Source of the DNA: an uncultured Coriobacteriaceae bacterium
Lineage (GTDB): Bacteria; Actinomycetota; Coriobacteriia; Coriobacteriales; UMGS124
Assembly (NCBI GenBank): GCA_900539345.1
Contig: UQBS01000002.1
Coordinates: 15,723 to 79,722 of the forward strand
DNA length: 64,000 nt
Reading direction: 5' to 3'
The notes beneath the pieces are model-generated. The model was not told the DNA's origin. It saw only the letters and a program-made list of their open reading frames with translations, and made no database searches. The translations under genes were made by a program, and so were the position numbers. Below are positions 24,866 to 39,734 of the stretch, in pieces. Every line of letters starts with the position of its first letter. Position 1 is the first letter of the stretch.

Positions 24866-24868
24866 GTA

Positions 24869-25104
24869 GCGGAACCTTATGCGCTGCGTTCCCGGGAGGC
24901 TAGAGTACTCCAGTACACGTCGCCTCCCGGCGCCTTGCGCATCAGAACCCGCGTTTTAGTGGGTGGCGGAACCGGATGCGCTGCGTTCCGCGGAGTCTCA
25001 TGTACGTCCAGTAGGCCAAAGGCCCGCACCGCGCACGTCGGCATCGCGCGCCCTGCGCATCAGAACCCGCGTTTTGGTGGGTGGCGGAACCGGATGCGCT
25101 GAGG
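24869..25104. repeat. family A nested-hairpin repeat array, locus 1 (about 2.3 units, inverted relative to loci 2 and 3)
   Basis: Contains GCGGAACC..ATGCGC, GCGCATCAGAACCCGCGTTTT and the 8-bp variable stem CGGGAGGC/GCCTCCCG. This is the reverse complement of the unit seen at 31740-32232 and 38347-38556. Confidence 0.85.
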
Positions 25105-31739: not shown

Positions 31740-32232
31740 GACAGGCGAGGCCCCGCCCCACTAAAACGCGGGTTCTGATGCACAAGGCGCACGGGGCCGC
31801 TGTGCGCCTTGCGGGCCCTTGGCCTACTAGACGTACACCAAAGGTGCGCACCGCGCGTGAGGTCCCGCGGAACGCGGCGCATCAGGTTCCGCCCTTTAAA
31901 ACGCAGGTTCTGATGCGCAAGGCGCCGGGAGGCGATGTGTACTAGATGTACACCAAAGGTGCGCACCGCGCGTGAGCCTCCCGGCACGGAGTGCCCTTCG
32001 CGACGAGTCCCGTGGAGAACGCAGCGCATCAGGTTCCGCCCTTTAAAACGCAGGTTCTCACGCGCAAGGCGCACGAAGCCGATGTGTACTTGGAGTACAT
32101 GAGGCTTCGTGGAACGCGGCGCATCAGGTTCCGCCCGTACAAACGCGGGTTCTCGTCCGCAAGGCGCACGGGGCCGATGCGTACTAGATGTACGTGAGGT
32201 CCCGTGGAACGCGGCGGACGAGGTTCCGCAAC
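31740..32232. repeat. family A nested-hairpin repeat array, locus 2 (about 4.5 tandem units)
   Basis: Units are AAAACGC(R)GGTTCTGATGCGCAAGGCGC-[8 nt]-GATGYGTAC...GTACRTGA-[complementary 8 nt]-GGAACGCGGCGCATCAGGTTCCGCC. It fills the whole gap between the transglutaminase-like gene and the GT8 gene. Confidence 0.9.
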
Positions 32233-32235
32233 TCG

Positions 32236-33741
32236 TTAGCTGGCGCGGTAGCCGGTATCGAGGGTGTAGGAGAGTGAAGTCGCCGGCAGCAACCAGCCGT
32301 TGGACGAAAGCGAGGCGTCGATGAGGCACTGCCTGCCGTCGAGGCTCGTGAGGAACACAAGGCCGTGGTCGCCCCAGTTGCCGCTCTGGCGCAGCACCAG
32401 GCAGGGTTCGGCGATGGCGTCGGCGTAGCCGTAGTAGCGCATGATGTACTGGATGGCCGCCGCGAACTCGTAGCAGTTGGCCGTCATGTTGGTGAAGCAC
32501 TGCTTGGCGTAGGTGATGCGCCAGTCGCCCTCAACGTCCCAAGGACGCTGGTTCTGGTCGTTCTCGACGTAGTCAATCCATGAGATGTGCAGGTAGGTGT
32601 AGTAAGCGTTGTCACCGGCATCCAGGCCGTCCTGCGCCTGGCTGTCGCAGTAGTTCTTCACCAGCTGGTCGAGCTCGGCGTCGCCCGTGGTGAAGTAGCC
32701 GGTGGGCGACCAGGGGTCCTCGACGCCGCCCGAGTTGTAGGCTGCGTCCTTGTTGAAAGACGTGGTCGAGTAGCTCCACACGTCTCCCTGGGCGATGGTC
32801 GAGACATCATCCACGTCGTGGGGAGTCTGGTCGTGCGAGTCGGTTGCGGTCTGCTGTGTGGCAGACGTCGCATCGGTCGTGCCGGTGTCGGTGCTCGTGC
32901 CTGCAGCAGGAGTGTCGCTCGGTGTCGCGCCGGCGCTTGTGCCTGCGGACGTGGTGTCAGTCGTTGAGGAGGTGGCAGGGGCGCTGTCCTGCGAGCTTTC
33001 TGCTTGCACGTAGCCCTTATTGGCATTGCCGGCCACGCAACTGCCCACGAGGGCAATGATGACAAGCAGGGCCACGGCACCTACGGCTGCTACCGGGTAG
33101 ATGGGGTTTGACTGCATGAGCTCGACCATGCGCGCGAGTGGTTCAGGCAGCGCGGGGATCGCGGCTGATGCATCATGGGCTGCATGGGTGGCGACATACT
33201 CCTGGCTCGAGTGCGTGCGGGCGGTGCCATGCGCGTCTTGCGCGTATCGGGTGCCTTCGCGCTGTGATTGGCTGGAATGGTCGTCTGTAGCATACGCAGA
33301 ACGATAGCTGCCCTGACCATAGTCGTCGTAACGGGTGTCACGGCGGGCTTCATGGCCCTCTTGGGCATACCCGCCGCGCCAAGAGGCATCGCCTTGGTCA
33401 TATCCGGTTTGCTGGGCGTAATACGGCTGCTGGGCGTAGCGTGCGCTCGAGCTGGCTCGGTCCGTGCCGTACTCATGGCTCGTGGCACGCGCGCTGTAGC
33501 CGCCCTCGGCATACCTTGCATGGCTGTCGTCGGCATACTGGCGCTGCGTCTTGGGGCGACCAGACGGATAGCAGTCCTGCGTGTTGGGACTGTCGTAACG
33601 CTGGACACGAGGCTGCGTCGCTTCGCTGCGGTCATACCCGGCGCTATATGAATGGCCATAGTCGCGCGAGGAGGTGCGCCCGCCCTGTGTAGGGGAGGCG
33701 TGGCGGTTGGTGTTATCGCTGCGGTAACGCTCGTCTGCCAT
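32236..33741 (-). CDS. membrane-anchored protein with disordered cytoplasmic N-terminus and extracellular transglutaminase-like (Cys-His-Asp) domain
   Basis: N-terminal ~200 aa rich in Y/S/R/Q/D, a single TM (IYPVAAVGAVALLVIIALVGSCVAG), a Thr/Ser/Ala linker, and a C-terminal domain with candidate catalytic residues in NCYEFAAA, GDHGLVF and CLIDAS. Confidence 0.6.
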   Translation of the reverse strand: MADERYRSDNTNRHASPTQGGRTSSRDYGHSYSAGYDRSEATQPRVQRYDSPNTQDCYPSGRPKTQRQYADDSHARYAEGGYSARATSHEYGTDRASSSARYAQQPYYAQQTGYDQGDASWRGGYAQEGHEARRDTRYDDYGQGSYRSAYATDDHSSQSQREGTRYAQDAHGTARTHSSQEYVATHAAHDASAAIPALPEPLARMVELMQSNPIYPVAAVGAVALLVIIALVGSCVAGNANKGYVQAESSQDSAPATSSTTDTTSAGTSAGATPSDTPAAGTSTDTGTTDATSATQQTATDSHDQTPHDVDDVSTIAQGDVWSYSTTSFNKDAAYNSGGVEDPWSPTGYFTTGDAELDQLVKNYCDSQAQDGLDAGDNAYYTYLHISWIDYVENDQNQRPWDVEGDWRITYAKQCFTNMTANCYEFAAAIQYIMRYYGYADAIAEPCLVLRQSGNWGDHGLVFLTSLDGRQCLIDASLSSNGWLLPATSLSYTLDTGYRAS

Positions 33742-33757
33742 GAGGGCGGGTCACATC

Positions 33758-33922
33758 CTAGAACTGGTTGTAGATGAAGTCGGCACTGCCGCCGAAATCG
33801 GAGAAGGCTGAGAAGAGGAAGATGCCGAAAACAATGGCGCAAAAAGCGAGGGCCACCGCGATGCACGCAATGCCGTTGTGCTCGGCAAACCAGGTGCGTC
33901 CCGTCTCCTTGACCTTTGCCAT
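33758..33922 (-). CDS. dltX: DltX-like small membrane protein (D-alanylation accessory protein)
   Basis: 54 aa with one TM and an exact C-terminus ...GGSADFIYNQF-stop. This resembles the conserved C-terminal FxYxxF-type hexapeptide of DltX as I recall it (FIYNEF in Firmicutes). Lies 58 nt downstream of dltD. Confidence 0.6.
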   Translation of the reverse strand: MAKVKETGRTWFAEHNGIACIAVALAFCAIVFGIFLFSAFSDFGGSADFIYNQF

Positions 33923-33980
33923 GGTGAGGGGCTGCTTAGGCTCCTTCTCCTTGAAATGCTGGCCAGATTGCGTCGCCACG

Positions 33981-35177
33981 TTACTCGCCCTCCCCGTTTG
34001 CAAACTCATAGATGGCCTGGTTGAGGTCGACCCAACCCGTCCAGCCAAAGTGCACGATGTCGTAGAGCCAGTACGTCTCATACTCGCGGTCGGAGAAATC
34101 GCACACCTGGGCGCCCGCTTCCTCGCAAATCTGGCGCACGTGGCTGTAGCAGTTCTCACGCGTCTGCGCATCTATGCCGAGCAGGTCGTAATACGGGCCC
34201 ATCTCCGGGCAGATGACGACCATGACATCGATGCCGCACTCGTTTGCTACCTGCAGGAACGCTGCGAGGTCATCGTATTCAGGGGTGTCTGAGTACGTCT
34301 CGTTGGCACGGGAGCCCGCGGCTGCGTCGAGCACGGGGGCGAGTGCCTTGGAGTAGAAGCCGTCCTCAACGCCCCAGTCGTTGTTGGTCGAGCGGGTCTT
34401 GGCGTACTCAAGCGCCTCAGCGCGCATGGCGTCCCAATCGGGCGCCTGCTCGGCCTGGCCGTCGACGCGCTCGATGCCGCGGGCGCGCACGTCCTGCAGA
34501 TCGCGGCGCAGCGACAAGTCGTCGAACGCGGAGAACACGATGCGGTTGAGGCCGTCTTGCGGCAGCGACCCCGAGGCGGAGTCGAGCTTGGTCTCGTCGA
34601 TGCCCAGCTCGCCCAGACGCTGGCGTACATAGGCCTTGGTCTCGTCGCTGATGGCGTCGTTGTCGCAGAATGCCTGGTAAAGCGAGTAAGAGAAGCGTGT
34701 CTGGAACGTCGAGGCATCTTCGCCGCCGTCAACGAACCAGCCGGGGCTCACGATGAGCGCGCACTTCTGACGCGGCAGGCCCTCTTTTTGGGCAAGGGCG
34801 CCCAGGGCGATGGTCTGCCAAAGGCTCTGGTCGTACGCCTCGCCCACGAGCATGAGGTCGAGTCCGTAGTTCGTGGTTCCAAAGACCTGCGAGGCCACTT
34901 GAGGCACGATGCTAGACGGTGTGGAGAACTCCGAGGAGCCGAAGACGACAAGCGAGCGGTCGGTCATGCTGGCGCGCATAAAGTCGACGCTAGAAGATTT
35001 GGCCCCCGAGTACACGTAGCCGTAGTTGGCGTCCGCACTGGAGTCACCTTGTGCAGGCCAAGCGGTGAAGACGCATGCTGCGCCAACACCTGCCAGGGCC
35101 ACGCCGGCGCAGGCTGCAGCCAGGCGCAGACGCACCTGGCGGGGGTTCATGGGAGTTGGCTTCTTCGCGCGTGCCAC
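33981..35177 (-). CDS. dltD: D-alanyl-lipoteichoic acid biosynthesis protein DltD
   Basis: N-terminal TM anchor and an SGNH-like DltD pattern (VFGSSEF, later D..HFGW.GW). Position is after dltC. Confidence 0.8.
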   Translation of the reverse strand: MARAKKPTPMNPRQVRLRLAAACAGVALAGVGAACVFTAWPAQGDSSADANYGYVYSGAKSSSVDFMRASMTDRSLVVFGSSEFSTPSSIVPQVASQVFGTTNYGLDLMLVGEAYDQSLWQTIALGALAQKEGLPRQKCALIVSPGWFVDGGEDASTFQTRFSYSLYQAFCDNDAISDETKAYVRQRLGELGIDETKLDSASGSLPQDGLNRIVFSAFDDLSLRRDLQDVRARGIERVDGQAEQAPDWDAMRAEALEYAKTRSTNNDWGVEDGFYSKALAPVLDAAAGSRANETYSDTPEYDDLAAFLQVANECGIDVMVVICPEMGPYYDLLGIDAQTRENCYSHVRQICEEAGAQVCDFSDREYETYWLYDIVHFGWTGWVDLNQAIYEFANGEGE

Positions 35178-35210
35178 GTCGTGCCTTTCGAATGTGCCGA
35201 GGGCTTGGTC

Positions 35211-35459
35211 TTACATGCGCTCGCGGGTGCGGGCGACGATCTTGTTCAGGGTGTTCATTTCCTCGCGCTCCAGCTCAGTGGGGGCGATGGACGCGCCGAA
35301 GTTGGACTCGAGGGCCACGAGCAGCTCGATGGCGGTGAGGGAGTCGAGCACGTCCTCCTCGAAGAGGTCGATATCGGGCTCGTCGCGAATGTCGTCCTCG
35401 CCGGTGATGTCGGCCACGAGGTCGCAAATCTGGTCGAAGAGGTTCTCAGGTGCGCTCAT
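35211..35459 (-). CDS. dltC: D-alanyl carrier protein
   Basis: 82 aa with the phosphopantetheine attachment motif LDSL (EEDVLDSLTAIELL). Confidence 0.9.
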   Translation of the reverse strand: MSAPENLFDQICDLVADITGEDDIRDEPDIDLFEEDVLDSLTAIELLVALESNFGASIAPTELEREEMNTLNKIVARTRERM

Positions 35460-35477
35460 GTTGGGTTCCTTTCGTTG

Positions 35478-36674
35478 TTATGCATTGATGGGGTGCAGTA
35501 CCTGACCGCTGAAAAGGGCAAAGCCGAAGAACACGCAAACCATGGTGACGGCCCACGAGACGATGCGGAACCATCCTTCCTTGCGATGCTTCTTGTAGAA
35601 CTTGCTTTTCTTCTGGAAGGTCTCGCAGCTAGCAAGAAGCACGCCGTGGTACACGCCGTATATCAGGTAGTCCACCGTGAGGCCGTGCCACATGCCCATG
35701 AGGACGAAGTTGATCATGAAGGCGACGCAGGCGCAGGTGAGCGTGGAGGAGAAGAGCTTGCGCTTGAGGGCGAACTGCGTGAAGCGCATGAACACGAAGT
35801 CGCGCAGCCAGCTGGAAAGGCTGATGTGCCAGCGGTTCCAGAAGTCCTTGATGTCGGTGGCGCAGAAGGGTGCGCGGAAGTTGCGCGGCACGTCCACACC
35901 CAGCGCGTAGCCCACGCCCATTGCCATGTGCGAGTAACCTGCGAAATCGAAGAACAGGTACAGGCCGTAGGCAAAGGCGTACACGAGCTGAGTTGCCGCG
36001 AAGGCGCCGCCCGTGGAGGTTCCGATGGCGGCCGGTCCGAACCACATGAGCCACTGTGCGAGCGGGGCAATCACGAACTTATAGAGTGCGCCCACAACGA
36101 ACCAGCCGGCGCCGCGCAGCAAAAGCTCTAGGTAGGCGTCGCGGCCGAGCGTGTCGGTCATGTTTGCCTCGAAGGGGCGGCTACGAAGGATGGGGCCAGA
36201 GGTAAACGTGGGGAAAAACGACAGGAAGTACAGGTAATGCCAGGTCTTTACCTCGCAGATGAGCCCGTCGCGAATCTCGATGAGCATCTGCACGGCCTTG
36301 AAGGTGATGTAGGAGATGCCCAGAAAGCCCAGGAAGTTGGGCTCGAACACCACGCCCACCTTGTAGACGGCCAAAGGTGCGATTTGCACGGCCAGGGCCA
36401 CGCGGTACAGCGCCACCGCGCGAGGCGAGACCTCACGGCCTTCGCCGGGGTTGAAGAGCTTACACACCCACCGGGCAAGTGCGATGGATCCCGCCAGGTA
36501 GCAGACGAAGAAGACAAGCGACGGCAGCGCCTTGCTGTAAAGCAGGGCAAGCATCGCAAGCGACGCCACGCAGCCCCAGGGGGCGATGGGCTTCTCCCGC
36601 ACGCCGAGCACAACGGCCACGGCCACGATGGGGATGAGCAGTATGAAGAATGCCGGGTCGAGGTAGAAGCTCAT
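35478..36674 (-). CDS. dltB: D-alanyl transfer protein DltB (MBOAT family)
   Basis: Multi-TM MBOAT with the conserved FW.RWHISLS.W.RD..F motif (catalytic His). Confidence 0.9.
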   Translation of the reverse strand: MSFYLDPAFFILLIPIVAVAVVLGVREKPIAPWGCVASLAMLALLYSKALPSLVFFVCYLAGSIALARWVCKLFNPGEGREVSPRAVALYRVALAVQIAPLAVYKVGVVFEPNFLGFLGISYITFKAVQMLIEIRDGLICEVKTWHYLYFLSFFPTFTSGPILRSRPFEANMTDTLGRDAYLELLLRGAGWFVVGALYKFVIAPLAQWLMWFGPAAIGTSTGGAFAATQLVYAFAYGLYLFFDFAGYSHMAMGVGYALGVDVPRNFRAPFCATDIKDFWNRWHISLSSWLRDFVFMRFTQFALKRKLFSSTLTCACVAFMINFVLMGMWHGLTVDYLIYGVYHGVLLASCETFQKKSKFYKKHRKEGWFRIVSWAVTMVCVFFGFALFSGQVLHPINA

Positions 36675-36689
36675 GCCTGCTGGCCTGTC

Positions 36690-38297
36690 TTACAGCTCGA
36701 ACATGGCGGCGAGCGCCTTGCGGTCGGCCTTGCCGTTGGAGTTCAGCGGCATGGAGTCGATGTACTTGAAGGAGCTCGGTACCATGTAGGTGGGGAGAGC
36801 CTGCTTGAGCTGGGCCTTGATCTTCTTGGTGAGGGCAAAGCCGCGCGGGGCTTCCAGGTCGGAGGGCACGACGATGGCCGTGAGGTGGGCGATGGAGCCA
36901 CCCTTGCGCACGGGCAGCACGCATGCCATGCGCACCTCGGGCACAGCCACGAGGCACGACTCGATGTCGCCCAGCTCGATGCGGTAGCCGTGGAGCTTCA
37001 CCTGCAGGTCGAGCCTGCCGTGGTAGTAGATGATACCGGAGGGGTCGCGAGTGACCTCGTCGCCCGTGCGGTACGACTTGCGGCCCTGCGCCAGCACCTC
37101 AGGGCAGGAGTGGAAGGCGGCCTCGGTGATGTCGGGGCGCTTCCAGTAGCCGCGGGCCACGGTGTTGCCCACGATGTACATCTCGCCGGGAGTGCCGTCG
37201 GACACCTGTTCGAGCGTGGCGGGGTCCACCACATAGAGGTCGGTGCCGGGCTTGGAGAAGCCGATGGGCAGGGCCTTGTCGGCGCTCAGCATCTCATCGG
37301 TGATGCGGCACAGCGTCACCAGGTCGGTGGACTCGGTGGGGCCGTAGCCGTTGTAGACCTCGACGCGACCGTTGAAACGCTCGCGCACGGCGCGCACGGT
37401 CTCAGGGCGCAGCGTCTCGCCGGCCAGGAGCATGCGGCGCAGGCGCGGCATGAGGGTATCGCCGAAGGATGGATCGGCCAGGCACTGCTCGACAAAGGAA
37501 GGCGTGGAGACCCAGTCCGTGGCGCCCGAACGGCCAAGCGCCTCGAACGTGGCGGCCAGGCTTGCGTCGGCGGCCGCCTCGTTGGCGAAGCACGTGTCGC
37601 CGCGGGTAAGGCCGCAGCACATGTCGGTGATGCTCACGTCGAAGGAGAACGGGGTGCGGTTGAACCACACGCGTCCGCCGAAGTCGGGGTCCTGACCCTC
37701 CGAGAGAGGTTCGTCGAAGGCGTAGTCGCTCGTCATCCAGTCATAGAAGCCGTCGACGCACTCAGTGGTGACCTCAACGCCCTTGGGCGTGCCGGTGCTG
37801 CCCGAGGTGAAGAGGATGTAGTAGGTGTCCTCGGCGCCCAGGCCTTCCAGGGCGTGGGCCTGCTCGGCGCTGAAAGGCTGGGCGCATGCGGCCGCGAGCT
37901 CCTCGGGGCCGATGCAAGGAGCACCCATCTCGGGGGCGTTTGCCTGGGTGAACGTGCCAATGGTGTCAAGCACGGCAGTGGGTGCGACCTGGGAGGCGAT
38001 GTTTGCCACGCGCTCAGCGGGGTAGACCGTGTCGACAGGCGCATAGGCATGGCCCGATTTCACGCAAGCCAGGAAGCTCACGAGCATAAGGGGCGACTTG
38101 TGGCCGTACACCACAAGCGGGGCCTTTGCGGGAATGTCGGGGTGGCCGGCGATCCAGCAGGCAAGGGCATCTGAGGCGCGGCGCAGCTGCGAGAACGTGA
38201 TGCGCTCGCCGTCGCTGTTGACGAAGGCGACGCGGTTCGGCACGAGGTCGGCCTGGGCGTCTACGGCTTTGACAAAGGCGCTAGCGATCACAGTCAA
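36690..38297 (-). CDS. dltA: D-alanine--D-alanyl carrier protein ligase
   Basis: Adenylation-domain motifs: YILFTSGSTGTPKGV, GYGPTE, YRTGD, GRLDLQVKLHGYRIELGDIE. The track start is the TTG at 38297; the GTG at 38291 has better SD spacing (AGGGAG + 8 nt). Confidence 0.9.
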   Translation of the reverse strand: MTVIASAFVKAVDAQADLVPNRVAFVNSDGERITFSQLRRASDALACWIAGHPDIPAKAPLVVYGHKSPLMLVSFLACVKSGHAYAPVDTVYPAERVANIASQVAPTAVLDTIGTFTQANAPEMGAPCIGPEELAAACAQPFSAEQAHALEGLGAEDTYYILFTSGSTGTPKGVEVTTECVDGFYDWMTSDYAFDEPLSEGQDPDFGGRVWFNRTPFSFDVSITDMCCGLTRGDTCFANEAAADASLAATFEALGRSGATDWVSTPSFVEQCLADPSFGDTLMPRLRRMLLAGETLRPETVRAVRERFNGRVEVYNGYGPTESTDLVTLCRITDEMLSADKALPIGFSKPGTDLYVVDPATLEQVSDGTPGEMYIVGNTVARGYWKRPDITEAAFHSCPEVLAQGRKSYRTGDEVTRDPSGIIYYHGRLDLQVKLHGYRIELGDIESCLVAVPEVRMACVLPVRKGGSIAHLTAIVVPSDLEAPRGFALTKKIKAQLKQALPTYMVPSSFKYIDSMPLNSNGKADRKALAAMFEL

Positions 38298-38346
38298 GTC
38301 TCCCTACTCAGCATTCAGTACCAAATCAAAAGCGGCCCGAGCGCAA

Positions 38347-38556
38347 CGTGGCACATCAGGTTCCGCCTCCCACCAAAAAGCGGGTTCTGATGCGCAAGGC
38401 GCGCAGGGCCGACGTGTACTGGGGTACTCTAGGTCCTGCGGAACGCGGCGCATCAGGTTCCGCCCATACACACGCAGGTTCTGGCCTGCAAGGCGTCGGG
38501 AGGCGATGCGTACTAGATGTACGTGAGCCTCCCGAGAACGCAGCAGGCCAGGTTCT
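38347..38556. repeat. family A nested-hairpin repeat array, locus 3 (about 2.2 units)
   Basis: Same unit and orientation as locus 2. Variable stems are GCAGGGCC/GGTCCTGC and TCGGGAGGC/GCCTCCCGA. Occupies most of the 269-nt gap upstream of dltA. Confidence 0.9.
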
Positions 38557-38566
38557 GCATCACACC

Positions 38567-38794
38567 CTAGTTGTTGTTGATAACGGGAAGGTCGTCGCCG
38601 TAGCAGTTATCCTGCTCGCCCTCGCCTGCGTTGTTGTCCGAGGAAGCGGGCTGCGAGGCAGCGGGCGTGGCGCTCTGCACCGTGGTGCCCTGCTGCTCCT
38701 GCTCGCCGCAACCGGTGAGTGCGAGGGCACCGGCGGCCAGAAGGGCGGCACCGGCAAGCACGACGATGTTCTTGAGAGAGTTGGTGCGGGTCAT
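38567..38794 (-). CDS. small acidic lipoprotein (75 aa)
   Basis: Signal peptide with lipobox LALTGC; GGAGG RBS before the ATG at 38794. The mature part is low-complexity, Q/E/S/N-rich. Confidence 0.6.
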   Translation of the reverse strand: MTRTNSLKNIVVLAGAALLAAGALALTGCGEQEQQGTTVQSATPAASQPASSDNNAGEGEQDNCYGDDLPVINNN

Positions 38795-39122
38795 GTATAC
38801 CTCCAGGGGGAGTGTCGGTAAGAATAGCCAAACATGCAACGCTACATGGTAGCCCATGCGACGGCCCGCCGACTGCACGCGTCGGCCCGCAACAAACTTA
38901 ACAGCTATATTAAATAGGGGGAGGCGCGGGATTTGAATGCGAGTGCCGCCAACAGGTCTTCCCTGAATAATTAATCCCACTTATTCAAACCAATATTTCC
39001 ATTCAAGTTTGAGTTTATGCCGTCGAACCGAAACGATAAGGAAATCTCCACATCCCCGTGTTGAAACACAAATCGCGGGTTTACCATCTGCGCGTTCGAT
39101 ATCGCCTTGAGGAAAAGGAACC

Positions 39123-39734
39123 ATGGACGACCAGACGATGGGGCACGACCCAGCCGCGCAGGCGCAGACGCTCATTATGCGCCAGGATGTATCCGAGCGC
39201 GCCAGGACTATGCTCAAGCGTCTTTTGGCTGCCCATGAAGTGTGGTTCGACGTGGAGCGCGATCGCACGGTCGCCGGTCGCGTCTTCCCCGGGGTTGCGG
39301 AGTACCACGAGCAGGGTGAGCGCTATGTGCTCACCAAGAGGGCCAAGCTCTGGGAGGTTGCCAGCAACGAATACGTTTTCTTCGACACCGTCGGGTTTCT
39401 CGAAGAAGGCGCATTCGAGGAGATGGTCTCCTTCATGAAGCAAAAGGCGCTCCCCGAGATGGTGCATCCGCATCCCGACCACATGTTCTCCAACCTCTCC
39501 CTGGTGCTCATCGCAGACTCGGTTGCCCCCGAGGTCGCGAAGGCCGTGCGTCGCACGCGCTTCCGCAAGAACTACAAGTGGGGCATCTGGGGCTGGAGTG
39601 ACCTGCGGGTCGCCGTGGTGGACCTGGGGGAAGGCGAGTTCGGACGCGTGATGACAAACGCCGCAGGCAAGATCATCAAGAAGAACCTTGAGGCAAACCT
39701 GGCGCCTGCGGCACGGGAAAAGAAGGAGGACTGA
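39123..39734 (+). CDS. hypothetical protein (203 aa), likely co-transcribed with cstA
   Basis: Clean ORF with GAGGAAAAGGAA before the ATG. Ends 5 nt before the cstA start. No recognisable family. Confidence 0.55.
   Translation: MDDQTMGHDPAAQAQTLIMRQDVSERARTMLKRLLAAHEVWFDVERDRTVAGRVFPGVAEYHEQGERYVLTKRAKLWEVASNEYVFFDTVGFLEEGAFEEMVSFMKQKALPEMVHPHPDHMFSNLSLVLIADSVAPEVAKAVRRTRFRKNYKWGIWGWSDLRVAVVDLGEGEFGRVMTNAAGKIIKKNLEANLAPAAREKKED

Follow-up and report, generated by a model that had tools for sequence, protein, structure and literature searches.

The window, meaning the whole 64-kb stretch of Coriobacteriaceae DNA that was analysed, carries a dlt operon on its minus strand, in which dltA (36690–38297, TTG start), encoding a D-alanine–carrier protein ligase with AMP-binding domains, is followed by dltB (35478–36674), encoding an MBOAT protein, dltC (35211–35459), encoding the D-alanyl carrier protein, and dltD (33981–35177), encoding an SGNH-type transferase. 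DltB, DltC and DltD all score above their NCBIfam equivalog cutoffs (428 bits with TIGR04091, cutoff 375; 74.3 bits with NF003464, cutoff 68; and 251.7 bits with TIGR04092, cutoff 150, alongside a PF04914 match at 1.6e-78). DltA scores just under both of the NCBIfam DltA cutoffs (452 bits with NF003417 against 476, and 445 against 560). Coriobacteriia DltA, like the small protein described below, thus seems to lie at the edge of current models. When aligned with the Listeria proteins, DltD retains the GSSE and DxxH catalytic motifs, and DltB the histidines of WNRWH and MWHG. DltB, at 398 aa, is colinear with Listeria DltB to its end, terminates in ...FSGQVLHPINA, and has no fused C-terminal hexapeptide; the pathway therefore needs a separate shuttle, and the only candidate is a small dltX-like ORF that lies directly 3′ of dltD on the same strand (33758–33979 in the favoured gene model). 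Rfam gave no match within 33000–39200, TRF detected no tandem array ahead of dltA, and promoter and terminator scans of the dlt region performed no better than on shuffled sequence.

Beginning 16 nt past the dltX stop is orf501 (32236–33741, minus strand), the gene for a 501-aa membrane protein, which is probably co-transcribed with dltX, the gap between them containing no detected terminator-like site. In its product, which has no match in Pfam, NCBIfam or the PDB, a disordered N-terminus rich in Tyr, Gln and Arg is followed by a single transmembrane (TM) segment and, after a linker rich in Ser and Thr, by a C-terminal domain of ~170 aa that is conserved downstream of dltX in 17 related loci (L001–L017). 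Judging from the string NCYEFAAAIQY...GDHGLV...LIDAS, this domain may be of a Cys-His-Asp, transglutaminase- or papain-like type; a single-sequence AF2 prediction gave a pLDDT of 35. At the other end of the operon, upstream of it, a small lipoprotein gene (MTRTNSLKNIVVLAGAALLAAGALALTGC..., 38567–38797, minus strand) is syntenic in L001–L008, and its product has a weak NCBIfam match to the “lipo-invert C-terminal anchoring domain” (E = 3.6e-5, below cutoff).

The window also contains a dispersed intergenic repeat with the core GCGCATCAGGTTCCGCC, present in nine copies at ≤3 mismatches where 0.73 would be expected, and located at 24868–25099 (minus strand), 31877–32135 (plus strand) and 38345–38566 (plus strand). 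The units form clusters of two to three at spacings of ~95–147 nt, and the single cluster examined (38280–38600) has 16-nt inverted-repeat arms interleaved with them. Two of the clusters flank dltABCDX-orf501, one in the dltA leader and the other just past orf501. The element looks REP- or MITE-like, and has no Rfam match.

A small gene directly 3′ of dltD

A first-pass annotation, made from the sequence of the window, had described a 54-codon minus-strand ORF hidden inside a longer one, and its translation proved identical to the peptide then reported (MAKVKETGRTWFAEHNGIACIAVALAFCAIVFGIFLFSAFSDFGGSADFIYNQF-stop; 33758–33922). The enclosing ATG-to-stop ORF (33758–34171, 137 aa) is spurious in part, its upstream portion overlapping dltD in another frame, and the window as a whole, at 63% G+C, is rich in long non-coding ORFs; these are the circumstances in which a small reading frame might itself be no more than a by-product of high G+C. 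For the dltX-like ORF, that explanation can be given almost no weight. In comparisons with close relatives the 54-codon core has a pN/pS of ~0.03–0.08 (against locus L005, for example, there are 17 synonymous and five non-synonymous differences) and is under strong purifying selection, its GC3 of 0.80 is of coding type and resembles that of the neighbouring genes, and the ORF is kept across three Coriobacteriia families to ~20% identity, with its motif residues invariant. The post-dltD conservation, the invariant motif residues and the pN/pS effectively refute a spurious origin. An opposite-strand ORF at 33774–34292 was rejected as a high-GC artefact, given the selection acting in the minus-strand frame.

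The ending of the ORF is also distinctive. In a six-frame translation of 38 related loci and the window (~0.5 Mb), the pattern F-x-Y-x-x-F-stop occurred 36 times, one per locus and each time directly 3′ of dltD, and it was found nowhere else in that sequence. The expectation that such a small gene would be missed by gene callers turned out to be wrong: NCBI, ENA and Logan carry it, unnamed, as a “hypothetical protein” of 54, 73 or 83 aa (e.g. MCI5449887.1). Clusters of the 54-aa protein at 90% identity also include an unrelated 381-aa Paracoccus RND adaptor and a 535-aa rRNA methyltransferase, long members that look like a clustering artefact of the collection.

The three annotated lengths correspond to three possible starts. 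Probably the gene begins at the GTG at 33979, 1 nt past the TAA stop of dltD, giving 73 codons and a TAG stop (33758–33979) and a product translationally coupled to dltD. This GTG is preceded, 9 nt upstream and within the end of dltD, by the Shine-Dalgarno-like GGGGAGGG (33988–33995, minus strand), and in most related loci a start preceded by a Shine-Dalgarno sequence overlaps the dltD stop or sits within a few nt of it. Loci L006–L008 have an ATG at the equivalent position and retain the frame of the extension despite length changes of 19, 28 and 21 codons, and in the window the 19-codon extension from the GTG to the internal ATG has a pN/pS of 0.26–0.39 and a GC3 of 0.79. It is on this ribosome-binding site, the abutment of start and stop across loci, the kept frame, and the substitution pattern and GC3 of the extension that the coupled 73-aa model is favoured, and 73-aa gene calls for the protein exist in public databases. 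A 54-aa form starting at ATG 33922 is possible, since this internal Met is a conserved residue, and the 60-aa proteins of other lineages begin at the position aligned with it; the AF2 helices also begin at this Met, and no Shine-Dalgarno sequence lies before it. The extent proposed in the first-pass annotation thus stands as the conserved core of the gene, with the start likelier at GTG 33979 than at ATG 33922. The 83-aa start, ATG 34009, was rejected, as it has no Shine-Dalgarno sequence and would overlap dltD by 29 nt.

Protein anatomy and gene order in Coriobacteriia

The predicted product is a membrane microprotein. Hydropathy and AF2 agree on one TM helix, at residues 35–59 of the 73-aa form (33803–33877, minus strand), and the reading frame ends in FIYNQF-stop, the hexapeptide being encoded at 33761–33778 (minus strand) with its Tyr at position 70 of the 73-aa form and 51 of the 54-aa form; both features had been claimed at first reading and are borne out. 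There is a single strong hydrophobic segment (best 19-mer, Kyte-Doolittle 2.95), with six Lys/Arg in the tail N-terminal to it and none in the C-terminal tail. The AF2 model of the 73-aa form, built from a 32-sequence alignment (mean pLDDT 75.7), has residues 1–19 disordered, a juxtamembrane helix at 20–33, the TM helix at 35–59, and a short C-terminal helix that carries the motif; block-mean pLDDT is 87–96 over residues 31–60. On these predictions the protein is bitopic, with its N-terminus in the cytoplasm and its C-terminus outside.

Sixty family members were examined. The window and related loci supplied 33 of them, and a profile search across 1.84 billion representatives the other 27; predicted lengths are 51–108 aa, and the N-terminal tail is often long and variable. 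Counting back from the C-terminus, F-6, Y-4 and F-1 are invariant in 60/60, and in a 20-sequence alignment whose members are ~20–66% identical to the window protein, no residue other than these three and the initiator Met is invariant. Position -5 is Ile, Val or Leu, while -3 and -2 vary, the latter being Gln in 45 of the 60 members and Glu in none; the replacement of Glu by Gln noted earlier for FIYNQF is therefore the commonest state of the family. None of the 60 has an indel in the last 16 positions, and the C-tail, at 14–19 aa, never contains Lys or Arg (0 in 60/60), with a mean of six such residues in the N-tail.

The genomic setting is equally constant. A scan for DltD, taking one genome per species, yielded 38 Coriobacteriia loci from the Coriobacteriaceae, Eggerthellaceae and Atopobiaceae, including Gordonibacter, Eggerthella, Paraeggerthella, Olsenella and Parafannyhessea. 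A homologous small ORF lies directly 3′ of dltD, on the same strand, in all 36 loci with sequence past dltD, and in 35 of these it reads through to F-x-Y-x-x-F-stop, the remaining one (L033) ending at a contig edge inside the ORF. The order dltA-B-C-D-X, with the small gene last, had been proposed for the window, where it holds, and is that of most loci surveyed, X always following dltD. Two of the 38 loci, L007 and L008, are labelled Alistipes onderdonkii and Acutalibacteraceae, yet carry a Coriobacteriaceae-type dlt operon, with a DltD ~77% identical to that of the window and with the lipoprotein gene and an orf501 homologue included; these contigs are probably mis-binned.

A canonical dltX elsewhere had been named as a finding that would speak against the assignment, and none was found in the window or the 38 loci. 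In the window, the 269 nt preceding dltA contain no dltX-like ORF, nor is there another elsewhere in the 64 kb; among the Coriobacteriia loci, no F-x-Y-x-x-F-stop ORF lies upstream of dltA, with the exception of L021 (4729–9097), from an Eggerthellaceae MAG, in which the order is dltB-dltD-X-dltA-dltC, so that X follows dltD and at the same time immediately precedes dltA. Such an arrangement could plausibly represent an intermediate in a permutation linking the gene order of Firmicutes with that of Coriobacteriia.

The constant link across loci is dltD-X. L009 and L013 are without an adjacent dltA, and two further loci, L018 (1360–4098) and L033 (4394–7248), consist of dltB-dltD-X: dltC is missing between dltB and dltD, and the contig carries neither dltA nor dltC. 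The MAG to which L009 belongs (RUG033) has L033 as a second module, and in L018 the genes that come next encode choline-binding-repeat proteins. One might suppose from this that the conserved unit is dltB-(dltC)-dltD-X, that the L018 and L033 modules are paralogous MBOAT-SGNH-shuttle systems using another acyl donor or serving another target polymer, and that orf501 supplies a possible further lineage-specific component, although as a whole this reading is doubtful.

Relationship to Firmicutes DltX

DltX of Bacillota (PF12459, formerly DUF3687; “teichoic acid D-Ala incorporation-associated protein DltX” at NCBI) is likewise a microprotein of the dlt operon, and has been studied in B. thuringiensis, S. 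aureus, S. thermophilus and L. plantarum. Its gene position upstream of dltA and its topology have been described for Firmicutes (PMC5541007), and the FXYXXF motif has been defined as an acyl shuttle, together with the mechanism of a pathway that uses one (PMC12148441). The background given in the first-pass annotation, namely an FxYxxF motif whose Tyr shuttles the acyl group between DltB and DltD and a gene placed before dltA, agrees with both sources and with the Listeria and S. aureus loci, where copies annotated as DltX are located just upstream of dltA. The Firmicutes sequences used for comparison were those of B. thuringiensis (PMC5541007) and of Listeria, Niallia and S. aureus, the last three from chromosome-like records in a plasmid collection.

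Curated models do not recognise the Coriobacteriia protein. Neither the 54- nor the 73-aa form of the window protein has a Pfam (including PF12459) or NCBIfam match at E ≤ 1, and PF12459 matches two of 20 relatives, with a best E-value of 0.058. The first-pass annotation had named the lack of a significant hit to the DltX family model as evidence against its own reading, and taken literally this outcome goes against it; we judge the failure to be a sensitivity limit, not a refutation, because these models serve a family of roughly 48 aa.

Comparison of profiles is more sensitive to the question of kinship, and an alignment to Firmicutes DltX, suggested at first reading, gave a colinear match. 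With hhalign, the Coriobacteriia and Firmicutes profiles align over 40–48 colinear columns with a probability of 89.5% (P = 2e-6, score 31.3), where 100 column shuffles scored 8.8 ± 2.2 (maximum 14.6) and a reversed profile 9.6. The aligned columns cover an H-P/N juxtamembrane position and an aromatic-G/S-F helix end. When the hexapeptide was removed from both profiles, the score fell to 18.5 (P = 0.0012, probability 19.5%), a value reached by two of 100 segment-preserving shuffles; the signal is thus specific, but comes mostly from the hexapeptide. Searches with HMMs were concordant in both directions: when 8073 six-frame ORFs were ranked with a Firmicutes DltX HMM, the post-dltD ORFs took the first 18 places, with the window ORF at E = 0.0054, and a Coriobacteriia HMM placed the DltX of Listeria (E = 1.5e-5), Niallia and S. 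aureus at ranks 1–3 of 204 ORFs. Chance TM matches, such as that to PsbJ (16.5 bits), reach a similar bit score.

Wider searches provided no bridge between the two groups. The profile search of 1.84 billion representatives returned the same subfamily only, with no FIYNEF-type DltX, and B. thuringiensis DltX used as a query retrieved only proteins of the B. cereus group. In viral contigs, a scan for FIYNEF-stop picked up 13 matches, all by chance and none in a dlt locus, and the PDB holds no DltX chain, the best matches there being chance TM matches to PsbJ and TRPC channels. At the level of single residues, a TM Leu that is invariant in Firmicutes DltX (L23 of B. thuringiensis; PMC5541007) corresponds, in both the hhalign and HMM alignments, to Cys in the window protein and to a variable column in the Coriobacteriia family.

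These results leave some room for the protein being a functional analogue of DltX in place of a homologue, its F-x-Y-x-x-F having been gained independently through convergence or capture from the tail of an MBOAT-fused protein. The failure of the curated models, the missing bridge in the library-wide search, the weakness of similarity outside the hexapeptide and a gene position unlike that of Firmicutes would all fit such an origin, and there is a precedent in the “DltX” of Gram-negative bacteria, which has the same topology without sequence similarity to the Firmicutes protein (PMC5541007). An independent gain is nevertheless unlikely, as the similarity is colinear over the full 40–48 columns, including the juxtamembrane and helix-end positions, and the motif-free score exceeds 98 of 100 segment-preserving shuffles. 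The L021 order, in which X stands directly before dltA, also argues against it, and makes the relocation explicable by a simple operon permutation. Homology to Firmicutes DltX is accordingly regarded as probable on the profile comparisons, and functional equivalence to DltX is the firmer of the two claims.

Set beside its Bacillota counterpart, the Coriobacteriia protein shares a basic cytoplasmic N-tail, one TM helix, a short extracytoplasmic tail with the exact ending F-I/V-Y-x-x-F in which the Tyr is invariant, and the company of a DltB without a fused motif and an SGNH DltD. It differs in that its gene follows dltD, to which it is probably coupled, in place of preceding dltA; in falling below the PF12459 and NCBIfam thresholds; in never having Glu at -2 and not conserving the TM Leu; in a linker from helix end to motif that is one residue longer in the alignments; and in its predicted length (51–108 aa), with an N-tail that is frequently long and variable. 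A second likeness is to the MBOAT-fused shuttles of PatA in Gram-negative peptidoglycan O-acetylation and of other MBOAT-SGNH pairs, which share the FXYXXF hexapeptide and, presumably, the acyl-Tyr chemistry that links MBOAT and SGNH transferase (PMC12148441). In the PatA type, however, acyl-CoA is the donor and the MBOAT itself bears the motif, on two additional TM helices (PMC12148441), whereas in the window DltA/DltC form the donor system, and the motif is absent from the end of DltB and belongs to a separate microprotein. The Gram-negative “DltX” of Dickeya and Pectobacterium is also a small dlt-operon protein of divergent sequence, reported to have a Firmicutes-like topology and a gene upstream of dltA (PMC5541007).

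Proposed role and significance

Taken together, the architecture, the invariant motif, the position in the operon, the unfused DltB and the profile–profile similarity support the assignment made at first reading, and the ORF is very probably the DltX of this Coriobacteriaceae dlt operon, a divergent and relocated member of a Coriobacteriia-wide subfamily. In the mechanism that would follow, translation of dltX from GTG 33979 would be coupled to the dltD stop and yield a 73-aa protein with a disordered N-terminal tail. DltA would load D-alanine onto DltC, from which the MBOAT DltB would pass it across the membrane to the Tyr of FIYNQF on the extracytoplasmic side; the motif would then swing towards DltD, an SGNH protein, to meet its active-site Ser, and DltD would hand the D-Ala to an envelope polymer. 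The analysis shows that the gene is real and conserved, and shows its position, architecture, invariant motif residues and resemblance to DltX at the profile level; the acyl-Tyr chemistry, the contacts with DltB and DltD, and the true start codon are what we infer.

The acyl-carrier role is predicted from sequence, and the tight coupling of dltD and X could signal a DltD-specific partner. The protein might then be a small membrane component of the dlt locus that serves another purpose, for example as a regulator or in the assembly or stability of DltD, and its F-x-Y-x-x-F would carry no acyl group. Such a role is highly unlikely: besides the initiator Met, the residues held invariant in the 60 members are exactly the three of the motif at the extreme C-terminus, DltB has no motif of its own, the loci offer no other shuttle candidate, and the known pathway requires one (PMC12148441). 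A shuttle of the DltX kind remains the preferred reading of the gene.

Among the papers searched, none connected Coriobacteriia or Actinobacteria with DltX or D-alanylation, and none offered experimental evidence of translation or D-alanylation for any of the Coriobacteriia; an earlier mention may nevertheless exist. Judged by the curated models, the dlt operons of Coriobacteriia appear to be without DltX, their essential fifth component. This concerns the Collinsella-like Coriobacteriaceae, Eggerthella, Gordonibacter, Olsenella and relatives, which are common bacteria of the human gut or mouth. On the assignment favoured here the apparent gap would be closed, DltX being encoded at another position in the operon and belonging to a subfamily outside the reach of Pfam and NCBIfam, which is also why the proteins have been deposited as “hypothetical”; the 60 sequences assembled could seed a better HMM. 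Understanding of the mechanism itself is unchanged, and the value of the finding lies mainly in annotation and in the motif positions that are truly constrained. In Coriobacteriia only the F, Y and F of the motif are fixed, and the Glu of FIYNEF would be dispensable. The tyrosine acyl-shuttle model would thereby be extended to the Actinomycetota.
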